NCBI GenBank assembly: GCA_040387195.1
Contig: JAZKEF010000002.1
Coordinates: forward strand, 64,607 to 128,606
Reading direction: 5' to 3'
Length of the DNA stretch: 64,000 nt
Origin: Bacteroidota bacterium
GTDB lineage: Bacteria; Bacteroidota; Bacteroidia; UKL13-3
In this document: piece by piece, positions 43,301-54,845 of the stretch
Layout: each line of letters opens with the position of its first letter
Numbering within the stretch: position 1 is the stretch's first letter
Position numbers and translations under genes: made by a program
The notes under the pieces: model-generated
What the model was told of the DNA's origin: nothing
Database searches by the model: none
What the model saw: the letters and a program-made list of their open reading frames with translations, nothing else

Positions 43301-44600
43301 TACCCAAACAGAAGGAACATTATTACCGGGTTTCAAACCAACACCGCAGTACATTGGGCAGGATTTTGATTCGGACGGACCCGGAATCGACTTCATTCTT
43401 GGAGCGCAGGATCCCGACTTCCGTAACCGTGCCGCACGCAACGGATGGGTGAGTAGAGACACCCGCATTACCAATTTTTATACCACCAATTACCAGGAAA
43501 ACTTAACCGGCCGGGCAACCTTTGAACCCATCACAGATTTGCGGATTGATGTCAATATTGCCCGTACACAAACCATGAACTCATCTGTATTGTTCAGGTA
43601 TGATGATACAACCCAAACGTTTAAAGATATTAACCAACCTTCGGTAACCGGAACCTATTCGATAACGTATAATACCTGGTCGAGCACCTTCTCCAAAGAA
43701 GGAAGCAATGGCAATACCGAGGTGTTTGAAACCTTCATGCAAAACCGTGAAATAATCGCAGCACGATTGGCAGCCAATAGCAACCAACCCGGACAGGGCA
43801 CCGATAGTTTAGGTTTCCCGGTAGGGTACAGCCGCACCTCACAGGATGTATTGATACCGGCATTTTTAGCAGCATACGGAGGTACCGATCCTAACAGCAT
43901 CAGCCTGTCGGCATTCCCACGTATTCCGGATGCCAACTGGAAAATTACCTACAACGGATTGTCAAAACTGGAAGCCATTAAAGAATATGCCAGCAATATT
44001 ACTTTCAACCATCAGTATACATCAACTTATAACGTTGGGTCATTCCAAACCATCTTAACCGATACCGGTACCAATAAAGTAACAGGAGATTATACTCCGC
44101 AATACCAGATCCGGCAGATTTCCATCACCGAACGTTTTGGTCCGTTCCTGGGTATTGATATTACATTCGTCAATAATATTACTGCACGTGTGGAATACAA
44201 ACGCGACCGCACACTCAACTTTAACTTAACCAACGGACAGCTGAATGAACAAACCGGAGAAGAATGGGCTATAGCTGCAGGATACCGTACCACTAAGCTG
44301 ACCATCCCATTCATTCGCAGCAATGGCCGCCAACTGGTATTGGAAAGTGATATCAACTTTAAACTTGATTTTGGAATCAGAGATAACGTAACAAAAATCC
44401 GTAACCTCGACCGTACCTCCAATGATCCGGTACAAGGCCAGCGTGTATATACCCTGCGCCCTACAATTGATTACATGATCAGCCAGCAGTTGATGTTGCG
44501 CATTTTCTACGACTTCAGACGCACCGACCCGAAAACATCCAACTCATTCCCTACCATTATACAGAGTGGAGGATTCTCGTTAAGGTATACCATTCAGTAG
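37389..44600 (+). CDS. sprA: Type IX secretion system outer-membrane translocon SprA (Sov)
   Basis: 2403 aa; YDTEATFDFEN, GNVSLPL, INRIEVWVTN, WFNELR, GGWAA; ruvA-sprA adjacency. Confidence 0.96.
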   Translation: MLSNSRNTYISFSAVVAILLSVAWVASAEKPAEKGTARLRRKMWGFAPPDSALGDTPRIQLPYPIKDRKPYERTTSKNPFDLGEPSNIKNRYDLDPETNTYNYSSKVGGQEYRLPASVSIKEQLKEENKQQNKNYFRQRSQANNFVSGSGIIPPLRVGPKIFEKIFGSGIIDIRPRGTAELIFSGNFNTVRNPAFAPQQQTTGQFDFKQKIQLNVQGSIGDRMKVNINYDTEATFDFENQVKLDYTGKEDDIIKKIELGNVSLPLNSSLIQGSQSLFGVKTVLQFGKLTVTTIITQQRGKTTETEISGGAQTTKFDIQADGYDMNRHYFLSQHFRDNYDAWLANLPIIGSPVIINRIEVWVTNRTGSFDGSRDVVGFADLGESDKRANTKWVVSNPNDVVPNNATNSLYAYLNGETPTNSNKAGLRSALQIQNELQKDQPQTSLEPISQYQAISYARLLSPTEYTINPRLGYISLNQALNNDDVLCVAYEYSYNGRPVKVGELTTDVPQNPTVPAILFTKMLKGPSLRPDLPIWDLMMKNIYSLGTFQLQQKDFKLNIVYADDPSGADLNYLPVQNEPQFTGLPLVRVFNLDNLNTQQEKAPDGNFDFIEGVTVNSQQGRIIFPMIEPFGTYLSKKFINDPSRARYYSFFELYDSTRFAAVQLPQYNKFFLRGTYSGNSSSEISLGQSNIPKGSVRVTANGAPLTENQDFTVDYPSGRVKIINTGLLNSGAVIKVSSESNSLFSVQQKTLLGSRFDYKVSNDLLFGGTILYLNERPLTPKVNIGEEPISNMMIGFDGTYRRESRFLTKLVDRLPFIETKEPSQVTFQGEYAQLIPGVQSALANNGTAYLDDFEGSETPFDLRLGNNWFLASTPQAQLDKFPETSLTNKLDYGFKRANLAWYTIATTFYLNNAQTPTHIQNDDAQLSDHRVRQVGINEIYPSRQVQSGQPTNLPTFDLAFYPKERGPYNYTITGLNPDGTLQNPTQNWGGIMRKIEQNDFEASNIDYIEIWMQDPYLSNPNPGNKGELYINLGNISEDILRDNRRAAENGLPRTTDPAVEQYTDTTAWGRVPRQPVVNFAFDADATARELQDVGLDGFNDDAERVFFDSVYLQKLSTAFGVSSPAYQNAFADPSFDNYHYYLGTADYDPAQLSILDRYKKYNKHQGNSPTQSQTTESFATSATNIPDNEDINRDYTLNDMEEYYQYKIDIDKSRLVVGQNYVTDSIVTPDVTLKNGKKEAVTWYQLKVPVREFEKRVGQILDFKSIRFVRLYMRGFENEQVLRFGAFQLVRADWRKYLGNLEAGKEAKPGDPEDDTRFVVSTVNIEKNKFRTPLPYAVPPGIQREIDFSSPQAVQQNEQSLSVLVCNLKDGDARGVFKNIKTDLRQYGKLRMFIHAEGDQTTNNGDVTAFIRLGTDLTNNYYEFEIPLTMTRPGQATPEQIWPSENEMVIELEEFINTKIARTNANHPFTAPYYRQSGRFKYTVIGLPDLSNVRVAMLGIRNPRAIPGAIDDGLPKCTEVWFNELRMTEFNQRGGWAANGLIQAKLADFANVRLSGSVSTVGFGGIDKKLSERNFDDNYQYDLQSSFELGKFFPKKTGISVPMFVSYGNILIRPYYNPLNPDTKLQKEIDETTDPARQEKIKQSSDDYTAKRSLNFTNVRKTKMGANPKNHFYDIENFSFTYSFNETYRRNQTMEYYLQQNYKTMTAYTYNFNPKPWEPFGTIIKSKQLALIKDFNLFFKPQSWGLRLETDRRYGKTVNRSNDNFAIKQEDLYDKMYTMTRYYEFRYDLSKGLKFDYNATALARIDEPLGNIDENTPEKKDSIWDNFLKGGRLMQFDQTSRMNYNIPINKIQPLSWITPTYTYTATYQWKQAPPAADSLGNTVSNSRAQAWNASFNFTMLYNKIPFLRNIINPNQTARKPAPKKEDPKNVKKGKDGKPLKKEEEEKAPAKTPPVLAYTMKVLMSLKNASVSYTQTEGTLLPGFKPTPQYIGQDFDSDGPGIDFILGAQDPDFRNRAARNGWVSRDTRITNFYTTNYQENLTGRATFEPITDLRIDVNIARTQTMNSSVLFRYDDTTQTFKDINQPSVTGTYSITYNTWSSTFSKEGSNGNTEVFETFMQNREIIAARLAANSNQPGQGTDSLGFPVGYSRTSQDVLIPAFLAAYGGTDPNSISLSAFPRIPDANWKITYNGLSKLEAIKEYASNITFNHQYTSTYNVGSFQTILTDTGTNKVTGDYTPQYQIRQISITERFGPFLGIDITFVNNITARVEYKRDRTLNFNLTNGQLNEQTGEEWAIAAGYRTTKLTIPFIRSNGRQLVLESDINFKLDFGIRDNVTKIRNLDRTSNDPVQGQRVYTLRPTIDYMISQQLMLRIFYDFRRTDPKTSNSFPTIIQSGGFSLRYTIQ

Positions 44601-44659
44601 CTTCGGCCTTCCAGGACAAAGCTTTCGCACGCTCAGCTACCTGACCTAATACTAAAAAA

Positions 44660-45301
44660 TTAGTCGTGAAGTTTTTTCCAGGAAGAGATGATCTGTTTGA
44701 TATTGGAGAGCATTTCCTGATCCAGCGGATGCACTGCATGTAAGGTATGGATTCCTACCGATGCCGCTCCCCGCACATTGGCAAGGCTATCATCAATGAA
44801 CAAACATTCCTGGGGGTATTTTTGAATGTCTTTCAATACATACTCATATATATCTTTATTGGGTTTGCGCAACCCAATCTCATACGACAAATATTGCTTA
44901 TCAAACAGGTTGTCCCAACGCTCCAATCCGAATAATTTATCTATATATGCCCTCACAGCGTCAATATGGATACTGTTGGTATTGCTTAGCAAATAAATGC
45001 GGAACTGCTTGCGCAGGCCCTCCAGAATAGTAAAACGTGATTCATAGGTATCCAGCAACATCGCGTTCCATGCGTCATCTATTTCCGCATCGGTAATTTC
45101 TCCTTTAAATAGAGACTTAATGCCTTGCCGGAAATCGGCTGCCGAAATTTTTCCTGTTTCAAAATCATGAAATATAGGTGATGCCTCGTTCACATCATCC
45201 AAATCAAGCCCTTTCCTGCTAAATGCCCTAAGGGTTTTCCCCTGATCCAAATCCAGCAGCACACCACCAAGGTCAAAAATTATTGTCGAAATTTTATGCA
45301 T
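44660..45301 (-). CDS. HAD-family phosphatase (YihX-like)
   Basis: IIFDLGGVL, LLSNTN, LRKP, FIDDSLANV; start at MHKISTII. Confidence 0.9.
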   Translation of the reverse strand: MHKISTIIFDLGGVLLDLDQGKTLRAFSRKGLDLDDVNEASPIFHDFETGKISAADFRQGIKSLFKGEITDAEIDDAWNAMLLDTYESRFTILEGLRKQFRIYLLSNTNSIHIDAVRAYIDKLFGLERWDNLFDKQYLSYEIGLRKPNKDIYEYVLKDIQKYPQECLFIDDSLANVRGAASVGIHTLHAVHPLDQEMLSNIKQIISSWKKLHD

Positions 45302-45306
45302 GTATG

Positions 45307-45338
45307 TTTGTATAACAAGCCGCAAAAATATATGTTTG
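45307..45338 (+). promoter_or_regulatory. tRNA promoter overlapping divergent HAD promoter
   Basis: TTTG(45307)-N20-TATGTTTG(45331); TATTTTTG on minus strand at 45330-45323. Confidence 0.65.
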
Positions 45339-45400
45339 CCACCCTAATAAGGTAAAGCAATTGCATTGTTTTACGTTGGAAAACTTTGGAGCAATCCAAG

Positions 45401-45474
45401 GGGCCTATAGCTCAGTCGGTTAGAGCATCTGACTCATAATCAGGGGGTGCTTGGTTCGATCCCAAGTGGGCCCA
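45401..45474 (+). tRNA. tRNA with CAT anticodon, most likely tRNA-Ile2 (lysidine)
   Basis: Acceptor GGGCCTA/TGGGCCC-A, D arm GCTCAGTCGGTTAGAGC, loop CTCATAA, T arm CTTGG-TTCGATC-CCAAG; no encoded CCA. Confidence 0.92.
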
Positions 45475-45482
45475 CAAATAGA

Positions 45483-45517
45483 AAAGCCATTCATCAGTTG
45501 ACGAATGGCTTTCTTTT
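45483..45517 (+). terminator. Terminator-like hairpin after tRNA
   Basis: aaagccattc-N10-gaatggcttt followed by ctttt. Confidence 0.7.
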
Positions 45518-45522
45518 AACCT

Positions 45523-45818
45523 ATGAATATCTGTTATATACTTTATAGCCCCAAACTCAATCGTTATTATACCGGTGCCTCTCATGAGGGAATCGAACAA
45601 CGATCAGTTAAACACAATGCTCAGTTTTACGGTAATACTCATTTTTCAGCAATTACTAATGACTGGAAAGTATTTCTCATCATTGAGTGTGCCGATTATC
45701 TCATGCTATCAGAGTTGAGAGGCATATTAAAAAAATGAAGAGTTCAACCTATATCCGAAATTTGAAAAAGTATCCGGAGTTAATTCAAAAAACCCTTGAC
45801 AATACGAAAAACACCTGA
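45523..45818 (+). pseudogene. GIY-YIG nuclease with a 1-nt frameshift near 45699
   Basis: CYILYS...YYTGAS...R..KHN; -1 frame continues SHAIRVERHIKKMKSSTYIRNLKKYPEL to TGA 45816-45818. Confidence 0.85.
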
Positions 45819-45876
45819 CTCTCCCGATAACCATCGGGACAGGGGGTGCTTGGTTCGATCCCAAGTGGGCCCACAA
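45815..45876 (+). repeat. Duplicated tRNA 3' half with palindrome in place of the anticodon loop
   Basis: 45840-45876 identical (37 bp) to 45441-45477; ctgactc also shared; ataat replaced by tcccgataaccatcggga. Confidence 0.92.
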
Positions 45877-45880
45877 GCAA

Positions 45881-45915
45881 AGAGGCTGCCTCCAAAAGGC
45901 GGTTTCTTCTTTTTT
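45881..45915 (+). terminator. Terminator-like hairpin after tRNA fragment
   Basis: gaggctgcct-ccaaa-aggcggtttc then ttcttttttt. Confidence 0.55.
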
Positions 45916-46025
45916 ACCTATAAATACAACCCCAAAATCGACGCTTTTATACAGGTGCTTCCCATGAAGAAATGGAACAACGGTTGGCAAAACACAATTC
46001 TTATCATTACAAGAAACTAGGGTAG
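45916..46025 (+). pseudogene. Second GIY-YIG nuclease relic
   Basis: YNPKID/(1-nt deletion)/FYTGASHEEMEQRLAKHNSYHY aligns with copy 1 YSPKLNRYYTGASHEGIEQRSVKHNAQFY; no start, early stop. Confidence 0.8.
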
Positions 46026-46102
46026 GATATATTTCCGCGAGCGAATCCTTTTCTTTGGTAATGAGGCTCATTATCATAAATTTGCCCTATTATCACTACT
46101 CT

Positions 46103-49100
46103 ATGAAACAACTCACCCGCTTGTATAACAGGCATTTTATTATCCTGTTACTTACACTATTTTCTTTCCCTACAGTTAAAGCATCACACATTGTGGGGAG
46201 TGATATTACCTATAAATGTACTACTACACCCGGTATATATGAAGTAACCATGATCCTTTTCAGAAATTGCGATGGAGGGGCTTCTTTATGTGCTAATACG
46301 TGCGGGGCTGCCTGCACGCAAACAATGAATATAAAAGGGGCTGATGCAAGTTGTGCTACACAGAGCTTTGGTTCTTTCACGCTGAGCTTGGTTAATGTTC
46401 GGGATATTAATATCAACCTTGATTGTCCATTATCAAAAAACACCTGTACCAATATGAACTGTGTAACTCCGGGATCCTACACCCCGGGTGTTGAGCGTTA
46501 TGAATTCCGTGGATTTGCGAATATAGGATCCACTTCAGGTATTCCGGCTTCTTGTTGCAATGTTCGGTTCTCTTGGGAGCTTTGTTGCCGGAATGGGCAA
46601 ATTGCAACAGGTGCTGCAAATCAAAATTTTTATATAGATGCTGTTATCAACCGTTGTTTATCCATATCACCATGTAACAGTTCTCCTACCATAGAAAATG
46701 ACCCATATATGGTAATTTGTAATGGTGAAAACGCTATATTTAACAATGGTGTTACTGATCCGGATTTTGATTCGTTAACCTTTGCATTTACTCCTGCCTT
46801 ACAAGGTTTCAACAGCTCAGTAACCTACTTGCCTCCATTTTCATTTGCCACTCCAATGCCTTGGTCAGGCGCTCCTACTGCCCCATTTCCGGGTGGCATT
46901 CGTTGCGATACGCTCACCGGGGATATTTCTTTTACTCCTGGTGCTGGAATTGGCCAGAATTTTTATGGAGTAATGGCCATTGAAATCAAACAATGGAAAT
47001 ATATTGGTGGTATCCCAACTGTTATTGGAACTACCCGAAGGGATATACAAATGGTGATTCTGGCAAACTGCCCACCTAATAACCCTCCCAAATTGACGAC
47101 AGTTCCGATCAATACTATTAATCCAACATTACCCAAAACTTCCTGGGAGGTATGTGCAGGCAATCAGCTTTGCTTTACTGTTACAGCTAAGGATACCGAT
47201 TTTATTTTACCGTTGGTTTCGGATACAACCTATCTGAGTTGGAACCAAACCCTCACCAACTTAGGGGCAACATTTTTACCTACCTATATAGCTGCCGATC
47301 GTAAAAAACCAGCTCCTTTAGGTGGACCTCGTGAAGATCAATATCAGTTTTGCTGGACACCCACCATTGGTATGGCAAGAAACAATCCTTATTATTTTAC
47401 AATATCTGCTAAGGATAGTCGCTGTCCGAAGCCCGGTAAAGTAACGCGAAGCTTTTCCGTTAAGGTTTTAGGTGCTGCGGGTACCACCATTACAAAAACC
47501 GGCAAACAATGTGGGCAATGGCAAATAGGTTACGCTTCAGCTCAATCATTTACCACAACACAATTGCAGGTAGCCCAGCAACCTTTTGATTACACTTTTG
47601 CGGGTGGTTCCTCTACCTATTCGAACGTGCAAAACACACCAGATATTTCCTTTACTAAAGCGGGCAAATATTTACTGAAGCTAACCGTTCAGCAAAATGG
47701 ATGTACAACCAGTTTTTACGATACCCTATCGGTTGATACCCCGTTGTCGCTAATAGTTAGAGATACATTTACCTGTTCGGGAAACCCTGTTGTGATTAGT
47801 GCTCTTGCTTTAAAGGGCTCTTCGCCATATCAATATCGCTGGTACAATAGCATCCGCGATACGGCATTAACCCCTTTAAATCATCCCAACTTTTCAAGTC
47901 CCAATTTGAGTGTGGTGCCAACCATAACAAAAAGGTATACAATTCAATTACGTGACAGTTCAGGTTGCCGGAAATATGACTCCCTTTTGGTTAGCATTGC
48001 AGGTAATATCAACAATGTTATTGTTACTCCCGTTAACTGTTTCGGACAACCTTCCGGTTCTCTTAAAATAGAACTAAAGGATACAACCCTTAACTCATTG
48101 TTTCAACTCAACACTGCACCGTTTCAATCAGGCAATATCTTTTCAGGATTAAATGCCGGCACTTATTTAGTAACTGTTAAAGACTCCAATAACTGTACTA
48201 GTATCCTAAACAATGTGACAATACTTCAACCCCCATTATTAAGAGATACATTATCGGCTGTTTCGCCACAAACATGTCTCAATTTTAATAATGGAGTCAT
48301 CAATACACAGGCTGTTGGTGGAACTCCTCCTTATCGTTTTAGCCTTGACAGCACTACCTTTTTCGGAATCGGTTACTTTAACAATCTTATACCCAAAATA
48401 TATACTGTTTACATAAGAGACACCAATAATTGCACAGTAGGTTTTTCAAAAACCGTTGCTTCTGCTGATAGCCTCTATACATTGGTTACTACTAAAAACC
48501 AGACCTGTTATGCAACAGCAAATGGAGAAATAAAATTGAGCCCGAAAGGAGGAAAAACCCCATACACCTATAAACTCGATACCGGATCATATGGCGGTGA
48601 TAGTGTATTTAAAAATCTCAGTGCTAACCTTTATACCCTCTCAGTGAAAGATGCTAACTTATGTGTGATCTCAATCAATGATTCCATTCGTAAGCCCGCT
48701 CTGTTGCAACAAACTGTTCAACTGCATCCTGTAACCTGTTTTGGAGGAGCGGATGGAAAAATGCTCATCAATGTATCAGGTGGTGTAAAACCCTATAGAT
48801 TTAGTTTCGACTCTTTGAATTATGACACAGCAAGCCAACGAATGAACCTGACTGCAAAAAACTATAACCTTAGGATTAAAGACAGCATGGGTTGCATCAA
48901 CAGCGTTCTTCAGGTTATAACTCAACCAACGCAATTTCTAAATATCACTTCTGTTAAAAATGTAAGCTGTTATAATGGTGCGGATGCAAAAATAACAATA
49001 ACCACAATGGGTAACAATCCTCCATACTTTTATCAGGTTGATAGTGGAGCTATATATTCCACTGGGATCATAGATAGCTTGAAAGCCGGTGGACATACGA

Positions 49101-49888
49101 TTAAGATTATGGATACAAAAGGATGTATGCTAGCCTTCCAACAAACCATTTTTCAACCCACTCAACTTATTGGTTCTGTTCTCATCGTTCCTGCATCTTG
49201 TGCAGGAAGGAATAACGCGTCTCTTGAAATTACAGCGGCAAATGCCACTCCTCCGTATACTTATAATCTCGATAGTGGTAGTTTTGGCCTTCAACGCCTT
49301 TTTACAAACCTTGCTGCAAAAAGCTATGTAATTGGAATTAAAGACAGCAATAATTGTAAAACATATATCAACAGCATCATTACAAATCCTGCACCGATAG
49401 TGACGGGTCCGGTTAGCGGATTAAACTCAGTAACAAAAAACTCCATTCATACGTATAGTGTATTAAATCAAGCCGGACTTAATTATCAATGGACTCTTTC
49501 AAAAGGAACTGTAACATCCGGAATCAATACTGCTTCAGCAACCATTCATTGGGATTCAGTTGGAATTGATACGCTGTGGATTTCTGTAAATCGGGATTCT
49601 ACTTGTGGTGATACTGCTTTTCTTTCTGTACAAATAGGAAATGTGAGTTTAGCAGAAATTGCAGCACAAATCGGTTTAACAATCTACCCCAATCCCACCA
49701 AAAATTTCCTCCATATATCTGTTACTACAATACCTGATAAGAAATATATAAACCTCTATGATTTGCAGGGAAAACTGAAACTGCAGCAAGATATAACCTA
49801 CAACCAACAGTTGAACTTACAGGAATTTCCTGCAGGTATGTATTTTCTTGAAATCGGAGACTGGAAGGGTAAAATTATAAAAGAGTAG
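46103..49888 (+). CDS. Large Cys-rich T9SS cargo protein with SprB-like repeats
   Basis: Signal peptide, SHIVGSDITYKC N-terminus, repeated C.G..G.I...GG..PY.Y...L.AG.Y..VKD.N.C units, CTD IYPNPT...GMYFL...KIIKE. Confidence 0.88.
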   Translation: MKQLTRLYNRHFIILLLTLFSFPTVKASHIVGSDITYKCTTTPGIYEVTMILFRNCDGGASLCANTCGAACTQTMNIKGADASCATQSFGSFTLSLVNVRDININLDCPLSKNTCTNMNCVTPGSYTPGVERYEFRGFANIGSTSGIPASCCNVRFSWELCCRNGQIATGAANQNFYIDAVINRCLSISPCNSSPTIENDPYMVICNGENAIFNNGVTDPDFDSLTFAFTPALQGFNSSVTYLPPFSFATPMPWSGAPTAPFPGGIRCDTLTGDISFTPGAGIGQNFYGVMAIEIKQWKYIGGIPTVIGTTRRDIQMVILANCPPNNPPKLTTVPINTINPTLPKTSWEVCAGNQLCFTVTAKDTDFILPLVSDTTYLSWNQTLTNLGATFLPTYIAADRKKPAPLGGPREDQYQFCWTPTIGMARNNPYYFTISAKDSRCPKPGKVTRSFSVKVLGAAGTTITKTGKQCGQWQIGYASAQSFTTTQLQVAQQPFDYTFAGGSSTYSNVQNTPDISFTKAGKYLLKLTVQQNGCTTSFYDTLSVDTPLSLIVRDTFTCSGNPVVISALALKGSSPYQYRWYNSIRDTALTPLNHPNFSSPNLSVVPTITKRYTIQLRDSSGCRKYDSLLVSIAGNINNVIVTPVNCFGQPSGSLKIELKDTTLNSLFQLNTAPFQSGNIFSGLNAGTYLVTVKDSNNCTSILNNVTILQPPLLRDTLSAVSPQTCLNFNNGVINTQAVGGTPPYRFSLDSTTFFGIGYFNNLIPKIYTVYIRDTNNCTVGFSKTVASADSLYTLVTTKNQTCYATANGEIKLSPKGGKTPYTYKLDTGSYGGDSVFKNLSANLYTLSVKDANLCVISINDSIRKPALLQQTVQLHPVTCFGGADGKMLINVSGGVKPYRFSFDSLNYDTASQRMNLTAKNYNLRIKDSMGCINSVLQVITQPTQFLNITSVKNVSCYNGADAKITITTMGNNPPYFYQVDSGAIYSTGIIDSLKAGGHTIKIMDTKGCMLAFQQTIFQPTQLIGSVLIVPASCAGRNNASLEITAANATPPYTYNLDSGSFGLQRLFTNLAAKSYVIGIKDSNNCKTYINSIITNPAPIVTGPVSGLNSVTKNSIHTYSVLNQAGLNYQWTLSKGTVTSGINTASATIHWDSVGIDTLWISVNRDSTCGDTAFLSVQIGNVSLAEIAAQIGLTIYPNPTKNFLHISVTTIPDKKYINLYDLQGKLKLQQDITYNQQLNLQEFPAGMYFLEIGDWKGKIIKE

Positions 49889-49942
49889 TAACTGAATAAA
49901 ATAAACAACAATCAGTGATACTGAATCATAACACTGCTAAAC

Positions 49943-50509
49943 ATGAATAAATCTTTTCTGTTAATCGTAACTCTTCTTATTATACTTGCCGTTTCCTTTG
50001 TATCGTGCAAAAAAAACACGCCTGAAAAACCTGTAGAAGAATTTAAACGATATATTGTTGTGAAGCTGGGAACACATGTTGATACAGCTTTTTTCCATGA
50101 CATTAACAGATATACAAAGCCTCACTGTATGAAGAATTTTGTCGATACATTTAATCATGAGTTTTCATACTCTTTAGCCATACGAGATACCGGTAGATTA
50201 AGTATCATATTTAAAAAACCAATTGCAACTGGAACCTATTCCATCAGTTATTTAAGTATGAAACCGGATAACTACCACTTCTATTATTCCATTACAGACT
50301 CCTCAAGGATTAAAACTCTTTTTGTCTACCTGGTTGCCTCCGGCATATTAACTATTAGCAATATTGAACCATGTGAAATCAACCTAGTTAATTATCAAAG
50401 TCACTATGCGATAACAGGGGTCTGGCAAGGCAATCTGCAGGATAATTCTACCTTAAAGATTGTAAGCGGCTCAATCATCTTTCATAATTACCCGTTAGAT
50501 AATTTGTAA
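49943..50509 (+). CDS. Hypothetical lipoprotein
   Basis: Lipobox FVSC followed by KKNT; AT-rich. Confidence 0.65.
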   Translation: MNKSFLLIVTLLIILAVSFVSCKKNTPEKPVEEFKRYIVVKLGTHVDTAFFHDINRYTKPHCMKNFVDTFNHEFSYSLAIRDTGRLSIIFKKPIATGTYSISYLSMKPDNYHFYYSITDSSRIKTLFVYLVASGILTISNIEPCEINLVNYQSHYAITGVWQGNLQDNSTLKIVSGSIIFHNYPLDNL

Positions 50510-50521
50510 CATCAAGAGCAT

Positions 50522-53740: not shown

Positions 53741-54793
53741 TTATTTACCTAAAATTTGGATATACCGCTCCAGTGCCTGCAACTCATACACTGCAACCAA
53801 TTCAATAAAATCTGATTTGTTTCCTGTTGTTTGTGCTTTTTCCAATGCGTTGTAATAACTCATTCTGCTTTTTGCATCACCCTTAATATTTGCAATCACA
53901 TATCCGTGCTTGAGTAAAATTAAATTCATTACCAACCGAGACGTACGCCCGTTACCATCAATAAACGGGTGAATCGTTACCAACCTCTCGTGCATTTCAG
54001 CAGCAAGCATAACGGGGTGCAAATTTTTCTTTCCCATATTATACCAATAGTAATAATCCTCCATTTGCGGAGCCACCAAATAGGGTGAAGGTGGAGTGAA
54101 GGTGCTTCCTTTAATCATCACCTGAACATTTCTGTATTTACCCGCGTTCGGTTGGTCAATGCCTCTTAATATTAGATTATGAATGGCTAATACTTCACGC
54201 TCGTTAATCTCTGTGCTTTTATCAATTAAATGTTTCACATATGCAATAGCCTCCTTATGATTGATTGCTTCCAGGTGCTCGCGCATACTTTTTCCACTGA
54301 TGGTTAACCCTTCATTCACCACCAAATCAGTTTCCTTCAGTGTAAGCGTATTGCCCTCAATCCGATTGCTCTCAAAGGTATATTCTAACTCCAAAGCCTG
54401 AGCAATCCGATAACTATCAAATTGACGCATTTTGTCAAGCTTCTTCTTCAATTTGTCAATATCAGTAAGTATCGATTTCAGCGCTTTCGACAGCACAATT
54501 TTTGTCGGTTTTGCGTTATACTTTATTTCTTCTTCGGCCAGCATCATCGCTCTTAATGCCAACTCGCTTTCTTCTCTCACCTCAAACAAAATTCTCTCCT
54601 TGAGCCATAATACCGTTAGTTCTGCTAAATCAATATCCAATACCATGGCCAATTTTGCCAATTGTTCCCTGGTTGGTTTTCGATTTCCACTCTCAAACTT
54701 ACTAATCAAAGCTTGATCAATACCCGACTGCTGTGCTACTTCGCGTAACATGAGTCCTCTTTTTTCCCTTGTTGATTTAAGCAGTGTTTTCAC
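53741..54793 (-). CDS. XRE-HTH / Fic fusion protein
   Basis: HTH LREVAQQSGIDQALISKFESGNRKP; inhibitory motif SNRIEGN; catalytic HPFIDGNGRTSR; GTG start 54793. Confidence 0.93.
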   Translation of the reverse strand: MKTLLKSTREKRGLMLREVAQQSGIDQALISKFESGNRKPTREQLAKLAMVLDIDLAELTVLWLKERILFEVREESELALRAMMLAEEEIKYNAKPTKIVLSKALKSILTDIDKLKKKLDKMRQFDSYRIAQALELEYTFESNRIEGNTLTLKETDLVVNEGLTISGKSMREHLEAINHKEAIAYVKHLIDKSTEINEREVLAIHNLILRGIDQPNAGKYRNVQVMIKGSTFTPPSPYLVAPQMEDYYYWYNMGKKNLHPVMLAAEMHERLVTIHPFIDGNGRTSRLVMNLILLKHGYVIANIKGDAKSRMSYYNALEKAQTTGNKSDFIELVAVYELQALERYIQILGK

Positions 54794-54810
54794 GATTGAA
54801 CAATAATGAC

Positions 54811-54845
54811 ATGACAAATTTAGTCATTTTTTTTAGATTCACAAA
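54811..54845 (-). promoter_or_regulatory. Promoter with overlapping palindromic operator for XRE-Fic
   Basis: TTTG-N19-TAAATTTG; the -7 box lies inside ATGAC-N7-GTCAT. Confidence 0.7.

Follow-up and report, generated by a model that had tools for sequence, protein, structure and literature searches.

The stretch of DNA considered here, referred to as the window, comprises 64,000 nucleotides (nt) of a Bacteroidota bacterium of the lineage UKL13-3 (GenBank assembly GCA_040387195.1, contig JAZKEF010000002.1, positions 64,607 to 128,606), and the subject is a short array at positions 45401 to 46025 that combines a transfer RNA (tRNA) gene, two small nuclease genes of the GIY-YIG superfamily and an 18-nt palindrome, hereafter PAL. 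The genome of the window is denoted G000 and the contig holding the locus C2; other G numbers denote genomes of relatives. All features of the array are read on the plus strand, apart from PAL, to which no strand is assigned. Their order is an intact tRNA(CAU), a hairpin, a frameshifted GIY-YIG gene, a partial tRNA copy interrupted by PAL, a second hairpin and a truncated GIY-YIG relic. This order had first been proposed by a reading of the letters alone (the sequence-only reading) and is borne out by ARAGORN, Rfam, open reading frames (ORFs), and repeat and hairpin searches. The intact gene (45401..45475; Rfam tRNA 65.3 bits, E 2.3e-13) is called as tRNA-Met(cat), the sole ARAGORN call in the window, and is the functional copy that anchors the array; a comparison by eye, uncounted, gives the same reading for the tRNA of the congener G002.

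The 3' part of this tRNA (45441..45477) recurs at 45840..45876 as an exact 37-nt repeat (100% identity) with a start-to-start spacing of 399 nt, in agreement with the sequence-only reading to within 1 nt, and a 22-nt piece of the repeat that occurs twice in the window was found in 0 of 100 shuffles. Neither ARAGORN nor Rfam recognizes the displaced copy as a tRNA. The copy had been described as a 3' half; the exact 37-nt part of that description stands, while its extent does not, as tRNA sequence restarts 10 nt earlier, on the 5' side of the palindrome. There, alignment to the tRNA identifies a short arm (45812..45821; CAYCTGACTC) that copies tRNA positions ~25-35 and lies between the nuclease end and PAL. 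PAL itself (TCCCGATAACCATCGGGA; 45822..45839) replaces the anticodon-loop bases ATAAT of the displaced copy and stacks on the residual anticodon stem when folded as DNA (z score -2.9). Each of the two tRNA 3' ends is followed by a terminator-like hairpin, the first (45482..45513; inverted repeat and terminator scan) with 14-nt arms, a T-rich tail and a DNA-fold z score of -5.1, the second (45880..45908; terminator scan) with 12 pairs and then CTTTTTT. The surrounding 1-kb region holds five terminator-like sites against 0.8 expected from shuffles. Since just 9 nt separate hairpin 1 from the ATG of the nuclease gene, that gene is probably expressed by read-through from the tRNA promoter. An Rfam search of positions 44500-47000 at E values up to 1 returned just the tRNA and a sub-threshold match, on the antisense strand, to a plastid RNA family; with no Rfam intron match, the idea that the tRNA holds a group I intron, or an endonuclease carried by an intron, was set aside.

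Both nuclease copies in the window are dead, one through a frameshift and the other through truncation. Nuclease gene 1 (45523..45818) is split over two ORFs, 45523-45738 (71 amino acids; aa) and 45687-45818 (43 aa), with the N-terminal frame spanning 45523-45699 and the C-terminal frame about 45702-45815, a break consistent with the loss of 1 nt near 45700. Its N-terminal piece exceeds the Pfam GIY-YIG cut-off (PF01541, 25.3 vs 22.6 bits), and by eye the gene still has Y5, S9 and G18 and the R, H and E that the family alignment shows; translated with an X at the break, it is 55% identical to its nearest relative, a Met-linked copy from another genus (L029). The stop codon of this gene (TGA, 45816-45818) falls within the tRNA copy, on the 5' strand of the anticodon stem, confirming the earlier observation. 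Relic 2 (45912..46022), which lacks a start codon and contains one frameshift, covers about the first third of the gene and breaks off ahead of the SprB-repeat gene that follows. It is detected by tblastn (G000:C2:110518-110619, E 2.3e-6, one stop) and is weak on its own in Pfam (15.3 bits, E 0.026, under the cut-off); NCBIfam assigned no family to the pieces in the window. The relic and nuclease 1 are 74% identical across 69 nt. Over their 23 shared codons there are 8.0 synonymous and 10.0 non-synonymous differences, a ratio of non-synonymous to synonymous change (pN/pS) of 0.32, which lends slight support to the proposal, made from synonymous differences, that the two copies diverged while functional. 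The contrast between this 74% and the 37 of 37 identical positions in the tRNA part fits the later entry of one unit at the tRNA, an outcome that gene conversion could also yield.

The same module recurs across the phylum in the order tRNA, terminator, nuclease gene of ~95 aa, short tRNA arm, PAL in a tRNA loop and rest of the tRNA. Matches to the 94-aa protein occur in 30 of 41 related genomes. Where one best locus was taken per genome (n = 26), a tRNA lies beside the gene in 24 cases (co-oriented and upstream in 22, downstream in two) and in none of the remaining two; in most of these 26 loci the ORF is followed by a copy of that tRNA in split form, often with partial 5' copies upstream, and the split is filled by PAL or by a compensated variant of it. 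PAL reaches three or more copies in 20 of the 30 nuclease-positive genomes and in 0 of the 11 nuclease-negative ones, a count that overstates independence because the 41 genomes are kin. The palindrome, passed over in the sequence-only reading as an incidental interruption, is instead a genome-wide repeat that co-occurs with the nuclease as its conserved partner.

A search with an 8-sequence family alignment extended this picture to 80 loci from named Bacteroidota of the orders Chitinophagales, Flavobacteriales, Cytophagales, Sphingobacteriales and Bacteroidales. A co-oriented tRNA lies within 250 nt upstream at 49 of them and at 301-867 nt in a further seven; 10 others are cut by a contig end, and 14 have no tRNA within 1200 nt. 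The 49 close tRNAs are predominantly Asn (28) and Met (12), followed by Leu(TAA) (five), with one each of Phe, Arg, Leu(CAA) and Val. After the ORF, the palindrome is present at both loci of G000 and at 43 of these 49 named loci, in the latter preceded by a short arm of 8-19 nt. The expected enrichment of ~95-aa GIY-YIG genes beside tRNA fragments is thus strong, the genes lying immediately 3' of a tRNA gene and next to fragments of that tRNA. The anticodon region had been proposed as the site of the junction, and this holds for nine of the 12 Met-linked loci, from other orders, in which the palindrome replaces the anticodon loop as in the window. The short arm (tRNA 20/25-35) is likewise present in Met-linked cassettes of other orders. 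In flavobacterial Asn-linked cassettes, the palindrome occupies the variable loop. Internal stops interrupt 16 of 88 nuclease sequences among the matches listed, and the copy number of the nuclease varies from 0 to 9 among close relatives.

Arrays in congeners give the units a direction. In G007, eight tandem units of 410 base pairs (bp) lie behind tRNA-Asn, matching at 98% and each with an intact 94-aa ORF, and eleven 80-bp units with PAL in the D loop lie before the same tRNA, in support of the array building put forward in the sequence-only reading. Identity to downstream unit 1 is 99.5-100% for units 1-6, 98.3% for unit 7 and 94.6% for unit 8, whose PAL is degenerate; in the upstream array, units 4-11 do not differ from one another, and the outermost three agree at 73-75 of 80 positions. 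Both arrays are thus youngest beside the intact tRNA, in keeping with the earlier idea of repeated addition at that gene, and the window agrees with this polarity in that its distal relic is the more decayed. One intact tRNA is always retained at the cassette loci.

Comparison of empty and filled alleles, which the sequence-only reading had put forward as a check, shows turnover between congeners. The tRNA(CAU) gene of G002, G006 and G007 has an empty site; units occupy it in G000, G005 and, with a variant palindrome, G001. In G005 (L057, about 2190-2215), the same palindrome sits in the anticodon loop of a displaced tRNA(CAU) and the nuclease has an in-frame stop, a decay independent of that in the window; the displaced tRNA(CAU) of G005 also has an extra T-loop insertion of ~16 nt. 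Gene-less units behave similarly. A 60-nt PAL unit before tRNA-Asp is found in G000 only among six congeners, and a tRNA-Leu(TAG) unit is present in one copy in G000, about six in G007 and none in G002, G001 and G006; the spacers of both units are not copies of the native leader.

The second nuclease cassette of G000 is at tRNA-Asn and spans two contigs, of which C20 ends and C7 begins there. Their overlap lies within the tRNA, which indicates that the assembly broke on the duplicated tRNA part; the locus holds at least one nuclease unit. Its 5' part consists of an upstream pair of partial copies, each with PAL in the D loop, followed by the intact tRNA and its terminator, and its 3' part of an intact 94-aa GIY-YIG gene, a tRNA copy that begins at the anticodon loop and has PAL in the T loop, the tRNA 3' end and a second terminator. 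This gene, on C7, is the sole intact member of the subfamily found in G000 (L002 138-419; PF01541 39.9 bits vs a cut-off of 22.6), and its product may work in trans on the PAL units without a gene that lie at other tRNAs.

Intact nuclease ORFs are 81-99 aa long and consist of the GIY-YIG domain alone. Residues Y5, S9, G18, R26, H30, A60, E64 and K68 are invariant in 21 homologues, and we take the conserved GIY tyrosine, YIG motif, arginine and glutamate to have the catalytic roles familiar from the superfamily. The AlphaFold2 model of the 94-aa protein (predicted local distance difference test, pLDDT, 93.8) matches Slx1, UPF0213, HIGLE, I-TevI and the N-terminal domain of UvrC most closely in Foldseek. 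By profile, the nearest solved relatives are UPF0213 (Protein Data Bank, PDB, 1ZG2 and 1YWL) and Slx1 (E 2.4e-10, 5.7e-8 and 1.7e-6), and by fold UPF0213 and Slx1 are matched with a Foldseek probability of 1.0 and template-modelling (TM) scores of 0.53-0.63. The score over the PF01541 cut-off, the core residues and the predicted beta-beta-alpha-alpha-beta-alpha fold place the protein in the GIY-YIG superfamily. In a weakly resolved tree of 27 nuclease sequences, the label of the associated tRNA changes eight times against a shuffled mean of 14.2, and 0 of 200 shuffles gave a value as low. PADLOC assigned no defence family to three intact homologues. Searches of IMG/VR viral contigs (by pattern scan and tblastn), phage GenBank records and PLSDB plasmids yielded no relative of the 94-aa protein with the queries used, a blank that holds for these queries and is not proof of absence.

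G000 also encodes three other small UPF0213-like GIY-YIG proteins of 100-108 aa (C20:16111-16434, C13:234619-234918 and C27:103730-104038), which serve as an internal control for the linkage to PAL and tRNA. Identity is 44-51% among the three and 29-50% to the tRNA-linked copy, the latter in partial alignments of 30-70 residues. On their contigs PAL is either absent or no closer than 23 kb, and a list of 29 called tRNAs has no entry within tens of kb of any of the three.

Across G000, the pattern CCCGAT-N4-ATCGGG has 33 sites and its reversed control none. The sites are mostly intergenic and their flanks mostly unrelated. Eleven of the 33 are no farther than 350 nt from a tRNA gene or fragment, compared with about 0.2 expected from the 29 called tRNAs, and direct repeats flank nine of 32 sites compared with 1.1% of 1000 random positions. 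Scars of PAL units are borne by at least seven tRNA genes of G000. Partial 5' copies precede tRNA-Asn, Arg(TCT), Asp, Leu(CAG), Leu(TAA) and Leu(TAG), and in these upstream copies PAL replaces 4-5 bases of the D arm; tRNA-Leu(TAA) is additionally followed by three gene-less units with PAL in the T loop. The existence of gene-less, PAL-tagged partial copies up- and downstream of at least six other tRNA genes means that the unit is not simply a nuclease plus a tRNA half, as the sequence-only reading had it. The idea that the native D-loop AGCT is kept as the centre of PAL was rejected, since it fits AGCT-loop tRNAs alone and the Leu and Met cases show replacement.

Several further observations concern individual PAL sites. 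A run of N at C11:47690-47790 (L146) lies inside the PAL-unit array before tRNA-Arg(TCT). Five sites (C1:322795, C6:147069, C8:197, C14:29775 and C17:160026) have similar longer flanks of the pattern '...gcctactgcct PAL a[ct]tcttccttgcctact...', in either orientation, and appear to be part of a larger dispersed repeat that carries PAL. The site at C1:176863 lies inside an open frame of 600 codons, a putative gene. At a tRNA-Val locus on a contig from a named Chitinophaga metagenome-assembled genome (L139), one PAL is nested in the centre of another beside a D-arm fragment; PAL thus seems able to land in its own hairpin loop, which fits hairpin-loop targeting.

The locus is a decaying two-unit array, of the tRNA(CAU) type, belonging to a Bacteroidota-wide family of nuclease cassettes, for which the architecture, its distribution, the co-occurrence of PAL and nuclease, gain and loss between congeners and the polarity of the arrays are shown. 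The family is read here, at a probability of roughly 0.55, as cassettes that live on tRNA genes and dispense with a recombinase, their units being added through hairpin-directed cutting and repair against the tRNA. The cassette comprises a tRNA 3' part with its terminator, the ~95-aa GIY-YIG gene, a tRNA arm of 8-19 nt and the 18-nt PAL in place of a loop, and the displaced remainder of the tRNA comes after it. A model for the cutting step is offered by Ssn, described in the main text of its report as a 94-aa single-domain GIY-YIG protein that binds hairpin repeats as single-stranded DNA (ssDNA) and cuts just upstream of them (Chenal et al. 2025, Nat Commun, PMC11893778). By analogy, the nuclease would recognize PAL as an ssDNA hairpin and cut a few bases 5' of it. 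A nick or break so close to tRNA-derived sequence could then provoke recombination or repair with an adjacent or incoming tRNA gene, and this repair would add a new unit at the working tRNA, push older units outward and leave PAL to cap and disable the displaced fragment. Conserved tRNA sequence would act as portable homology, and a recombinase would thus be unneeded. The start of tRNA homology 8-19 nt 5' of PAL at 43 loci is compatible with a cut nearby and proves nothing.

A number of points weigh against this reading. Every mechanistic step is an inference, with cleavage, binding and transposition all unobserved, and the proposal leaves the route of PAL into a new loop unexplained. With both nuclease copies broken, nothing at the locus need be active. 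Of the 33 PAL sites of G000, 22 are not at tRNAs, and 23 of 32 have no flanking duplication. The nuclease tree is poorly resolved, with 14 of 24 inner branches open. Presence and absence among congeners is explicable by loss as well as by gain, because a deletion between direct tRNA repeats restores the 'empty' site exactly. Contigs from four sequencing runs were compared with the locus, and those of runs other than X1 covered the tRNA alone; in run X1, three pieces break at the 37-nt repeat with depths of 9.8, 9.0 and 10.3, giving equal depth across the unit and no alternative joints, although rare excision products are invisible in contigs. The motif published for Ssn (SRM; 5' flank HGTCWY) has one match in G000, at none of the PAL sites, and 3-12 matches in block-shuffled genomes. 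Of five cassette-carrying species checked in Supplementary Data 4 of the same report, three are cd10448-positive and two are positive by psiblast only, and such 'ssnA-positive' or cd10448 flags may refer to other small GIY-YIG paralogues (PMC11893778).

An improbable competitor is ordinary tandem duplication of a tRNA 3' half together with a resident nuclease gene, followed by decay, with PAL an independent repeat of the repetitive extragenic palindromic (REP) kind tolerated only in redundant tRNA fragments and the nuclease a passenger or host gene that takes no part in building the structure. Palindromes stimulate replication slippage, nine of 32 PAL sites are flanked by direct repeats, selection alone would explain why PAL is never in a working tRNA, presence and absence can come from deletion between repeats, and the unit in the window has the depth of its flanks and no variant joints. 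The arrays, however, end in a tRNA fragment with terminator and not in a nuclease gene, which is better accounted for by insertion into a tRNA. The junction of nuclease 3' end, tRNA position ~25 or ~31 and PAL is conserved between orders in the Met and Asn types, where random duplications should differ, and the spacers of the tRNA-Asp unit, specific to G000, and of the tRNA-Leu(TAG) unit are not copies of the native leader. PAL numbers follow the nuclease across genomes, the tRNA part is fully identical while the rest is at 74%, and the polarity is one-sided, whereas unequal crossing-over usually diverges both edges of an array. More doubtful is a homing endonuclease, free-standing and of the SegB type, which would cut duplex tRNA genes in naive genomes and be copied in by break repair, the palindrome destroying the leftover site. 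The genes do adjoin tRNA genes and their lineages cluster by tRNA type, and the available text of one report describes SegB in phage tRNA clusters, where it drives tandem repeats of tRNA and segB (PMC13096335). The protein here is a bare catalytic domain of ~94 aa with no DNA-binding domain of the sort that characterized homing GIY-YIG enzymes have, according to the main text on Ssn (PMC11893778). Moreover, the full putative target persists in the intact tRNA adjoining the gene, tRNAs without a cognate nuclease also have gene-less PAL units, and the viral, phage and plasmid searches gave no homologue with these queries. Homing by duplex cleavage of tRNA DNA is unsupported and not the best analogy; the sequence-only reading had raised nuclease-driven homing as a possibility.

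Two further alternatives have still less in their favour. A domesticated host module, in which nuclease and hairpins serve the cell by controlling incoming ssDNA, as proposed for Neisseria SsnA, or by affecting expression of tRNA loci, with a regulatory tRNA linkage, is judged quite unlikely. The main text of the Ssn report has SsnA modulating the natural transformation of N. meningitidis (PMC11893778), the family is widespread in the phylum and old, and the copies in the window diverged under some constraint (the pN/pS of 0.32 over 23 codons). Such a module sits poorly with the frequency of pseudogenes (both window copies, the G005 stop and the 16 of 88 among the matches listed), with a copy number of 0 to 9 among close relatives, with identical tandem copies and with the lack of a PADLOC defence match. 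Largely refuted, and very improbable, is the decayed end of an integrase-borne tRNA island, or else REP elements moved by a RAYT (REP-associated tyrosine transposase) or IS200-type Y1 transposase. In favour of this alternative are the duplicated tRNA 3' end, which is the classical signature of att sites, the five PF01797 (Y1_Tnp) matches of G000, and about 5 kb (45476-50517) after the tRNA that is missing from G002. In that closest relative, the synteny runs SprA, haloacid dehalogenase (HAD) hydrolase, tRNA(CAU) and accD, and the extra DNA of G000 lies between the last two. Besides the cassette units it holds only a SprB-repeat protein of 1277 aa with a type IX secretion system (T9SS) sorting domain (46055-49888), a secretion substrate, and a 188-aa ORF with no Pfam match (49943-50509). 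It thus has no mobile genes, and the earlier suggestion that relatives might expose an integrase-bearing island came out negative. The absence of a recombinase, claimed for the window, extends to the whole of C2, which has no PF00589 or PF00239 match; the three PF00589 matches of G000 are on C16, C11 and C12 and the single PF00239 match on C25. An integrase island was set aside on these two grounds, and the period of 400 bp recurs in tandem besides. REP/RAYT movement was set aside because Y1_Tnp genes do not follow PAL over the 41 genomes: they occur in 10 genomes with 0 PAL and were not found in G011 (30 PAL) or G023 (18 PAL), and in G000 the nearest PAL is about 8 kb from any match. Elsewhere in the window, a Fic/DOC-domain protein with an N-terminal helix-turn-helix (53741-54817) lies between housekeeping genes for NUDIX and UvrA and is unrelated to the cassette.

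Beyond this locus, the cassettes can tentatively be viewed as an undescribed class of minimal, recombinase-free mobile element in Bacteroidota, about 400 bp long with the gene and 60-100 bp without it, in which a hairpin-specific nuclease would cut 8-19 nt from PAL and repair on a tRNA landing pad would add a unit at the working tRNA, and PAL would take the place of a loop (D, anticodon, variable or T) in the displaced fragment and so disable it. Such an element would be a general remodeller of tRNA loci, a broader claim that falls short of even odds. The arrangement of tRNA, nuclease and palindrome was not described in the literature titles and abstracts searched, with most subscription journals outside their coverage, nor does the available text of either the Ssn paper (PMC11893778) or the SegB paper (PMC13096335) describe it. 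If the proposal is true, a tiny nuclease and an 18-base hairpin suffice to build and spread cassettes on tRNA genes without an integrase or transposase, which would open a new way for genomes to change in a major phylum of bacteria and would give Ssn-type ssDNA nucleases a concrete biological context outside Neisseria. It would also account for the poor assembly of Bacteroidota tRNA regions, as in the split of tRNA-Asn between C20 and C7, and offer nuclease and hairpin pairs of defined geometry for ssDNA work. For annotation, the proposal is a caution that partial copies of a tRNA plugged by a palindrome should be grouped with the 'hypothetical' genes of ~95 aa next to tRNAs.

Known systems share parts of this arrangement. 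UPF0213 and Slx1 are the nearest solved relatives of the nuclease by profile and fold. Slx1 needs Slx4 and has a RING domain. The two UPF0213 structures (PDB 1ZG2 and 1YWL) are titled only 'hypothetical UPF0213 protein', and the three UPF0213-like paralogues of G000, unlike the cassette nuclease, are not linked to tRNA or PAL. For integrative elements with tRNA genes as their targets, it is established that the integrase duplicates the tRNA 3' end as attL and attR; as here, a tRNA 3' repeat flanks the insert and the tRNA is restored by the element's copy. The cassettes differ in having no tyrosine or serine recombinase, a unit of about 400 bp in which the tRNA repeats enclose nothing but a hairpin and the nuclease gene, a palindrome in the displaced copy, and mirror-image gene-less units 5' of tRNAs. 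REP and REPIN elements depend on RAYTs, which are Y1 HUH transposases of the IS200/IS605 kind. They resemble the present system in that a dispersed short palindrome is tied to one small nuclease-type gene and recognized as an ssDNA hairpin, and differ in that the gene linked here encodes a GIY-YIG protein in place of an HUH enzyme and that Y1_Tnp does not follow PAL; they are also discussed in the Ssn report (PMC11893778).

SegB and Ssn provide the closest parallels among GIY-YIG proteins, one in genomic setting and the other in probable function. SegB is larger than the protein described here and has a DNA-binding domain. Of the features of the Seg family, adjacency to tRNA and tandem units are present in the cassettes and the DNA-binding domain is not, the whole protein being the 94-aa catalytic domain. 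As described in the available text, SegB is a free-standing GIY-YIG homing endonuclease of T-even phage tRNA clusters that drives segmental amplification in phage T6 (Chihara et al. 2026, Nat Commun, PMC13096335). In both cases, a GIY-YIG gene adjoins tRNA genes, tRNA and nuclease form a tandem unit (718 bp for SegB, about 400-410 bp here) and a junction joins tRNA sequence to the nuclease 3' end. SegB, in that account, is phage-borne, amplifies full-length tRNA under selection by a defence system and involves no palindrome (PMC13096335), whereas the cassettes are chromosomal and their extra tRNA copies are partial and disabled. For Ssn, the terms tRNA, Bacteroid-, tandem and duplication are absent from the main text in a term search, and SRM shows no enrichment (0.79-0.94 fold) in the Bacteroidota species checked in its table (PMC11893778). 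In the cassettes, by contrast, partial tRNA copies have loops replaced by the hairpin, and a tRNA on its 5' side anchors the gene. Likenesses to Ssn are as follows: both systems have a single-domain GIY-YIG protein of about 94 aa, both place its gene next to a short hairpin repeat that is present in many copies, lies mostly between genes and occurs together with the gene in the genomes compared, and the repeat cores are similar (TCCCG...CGGGA), with the main text likening the NTS-ssnA-NTS layout to an insertion sequence (PMC11893778). Ssn is the best functional analogy for the tRNA-linked nuclease.

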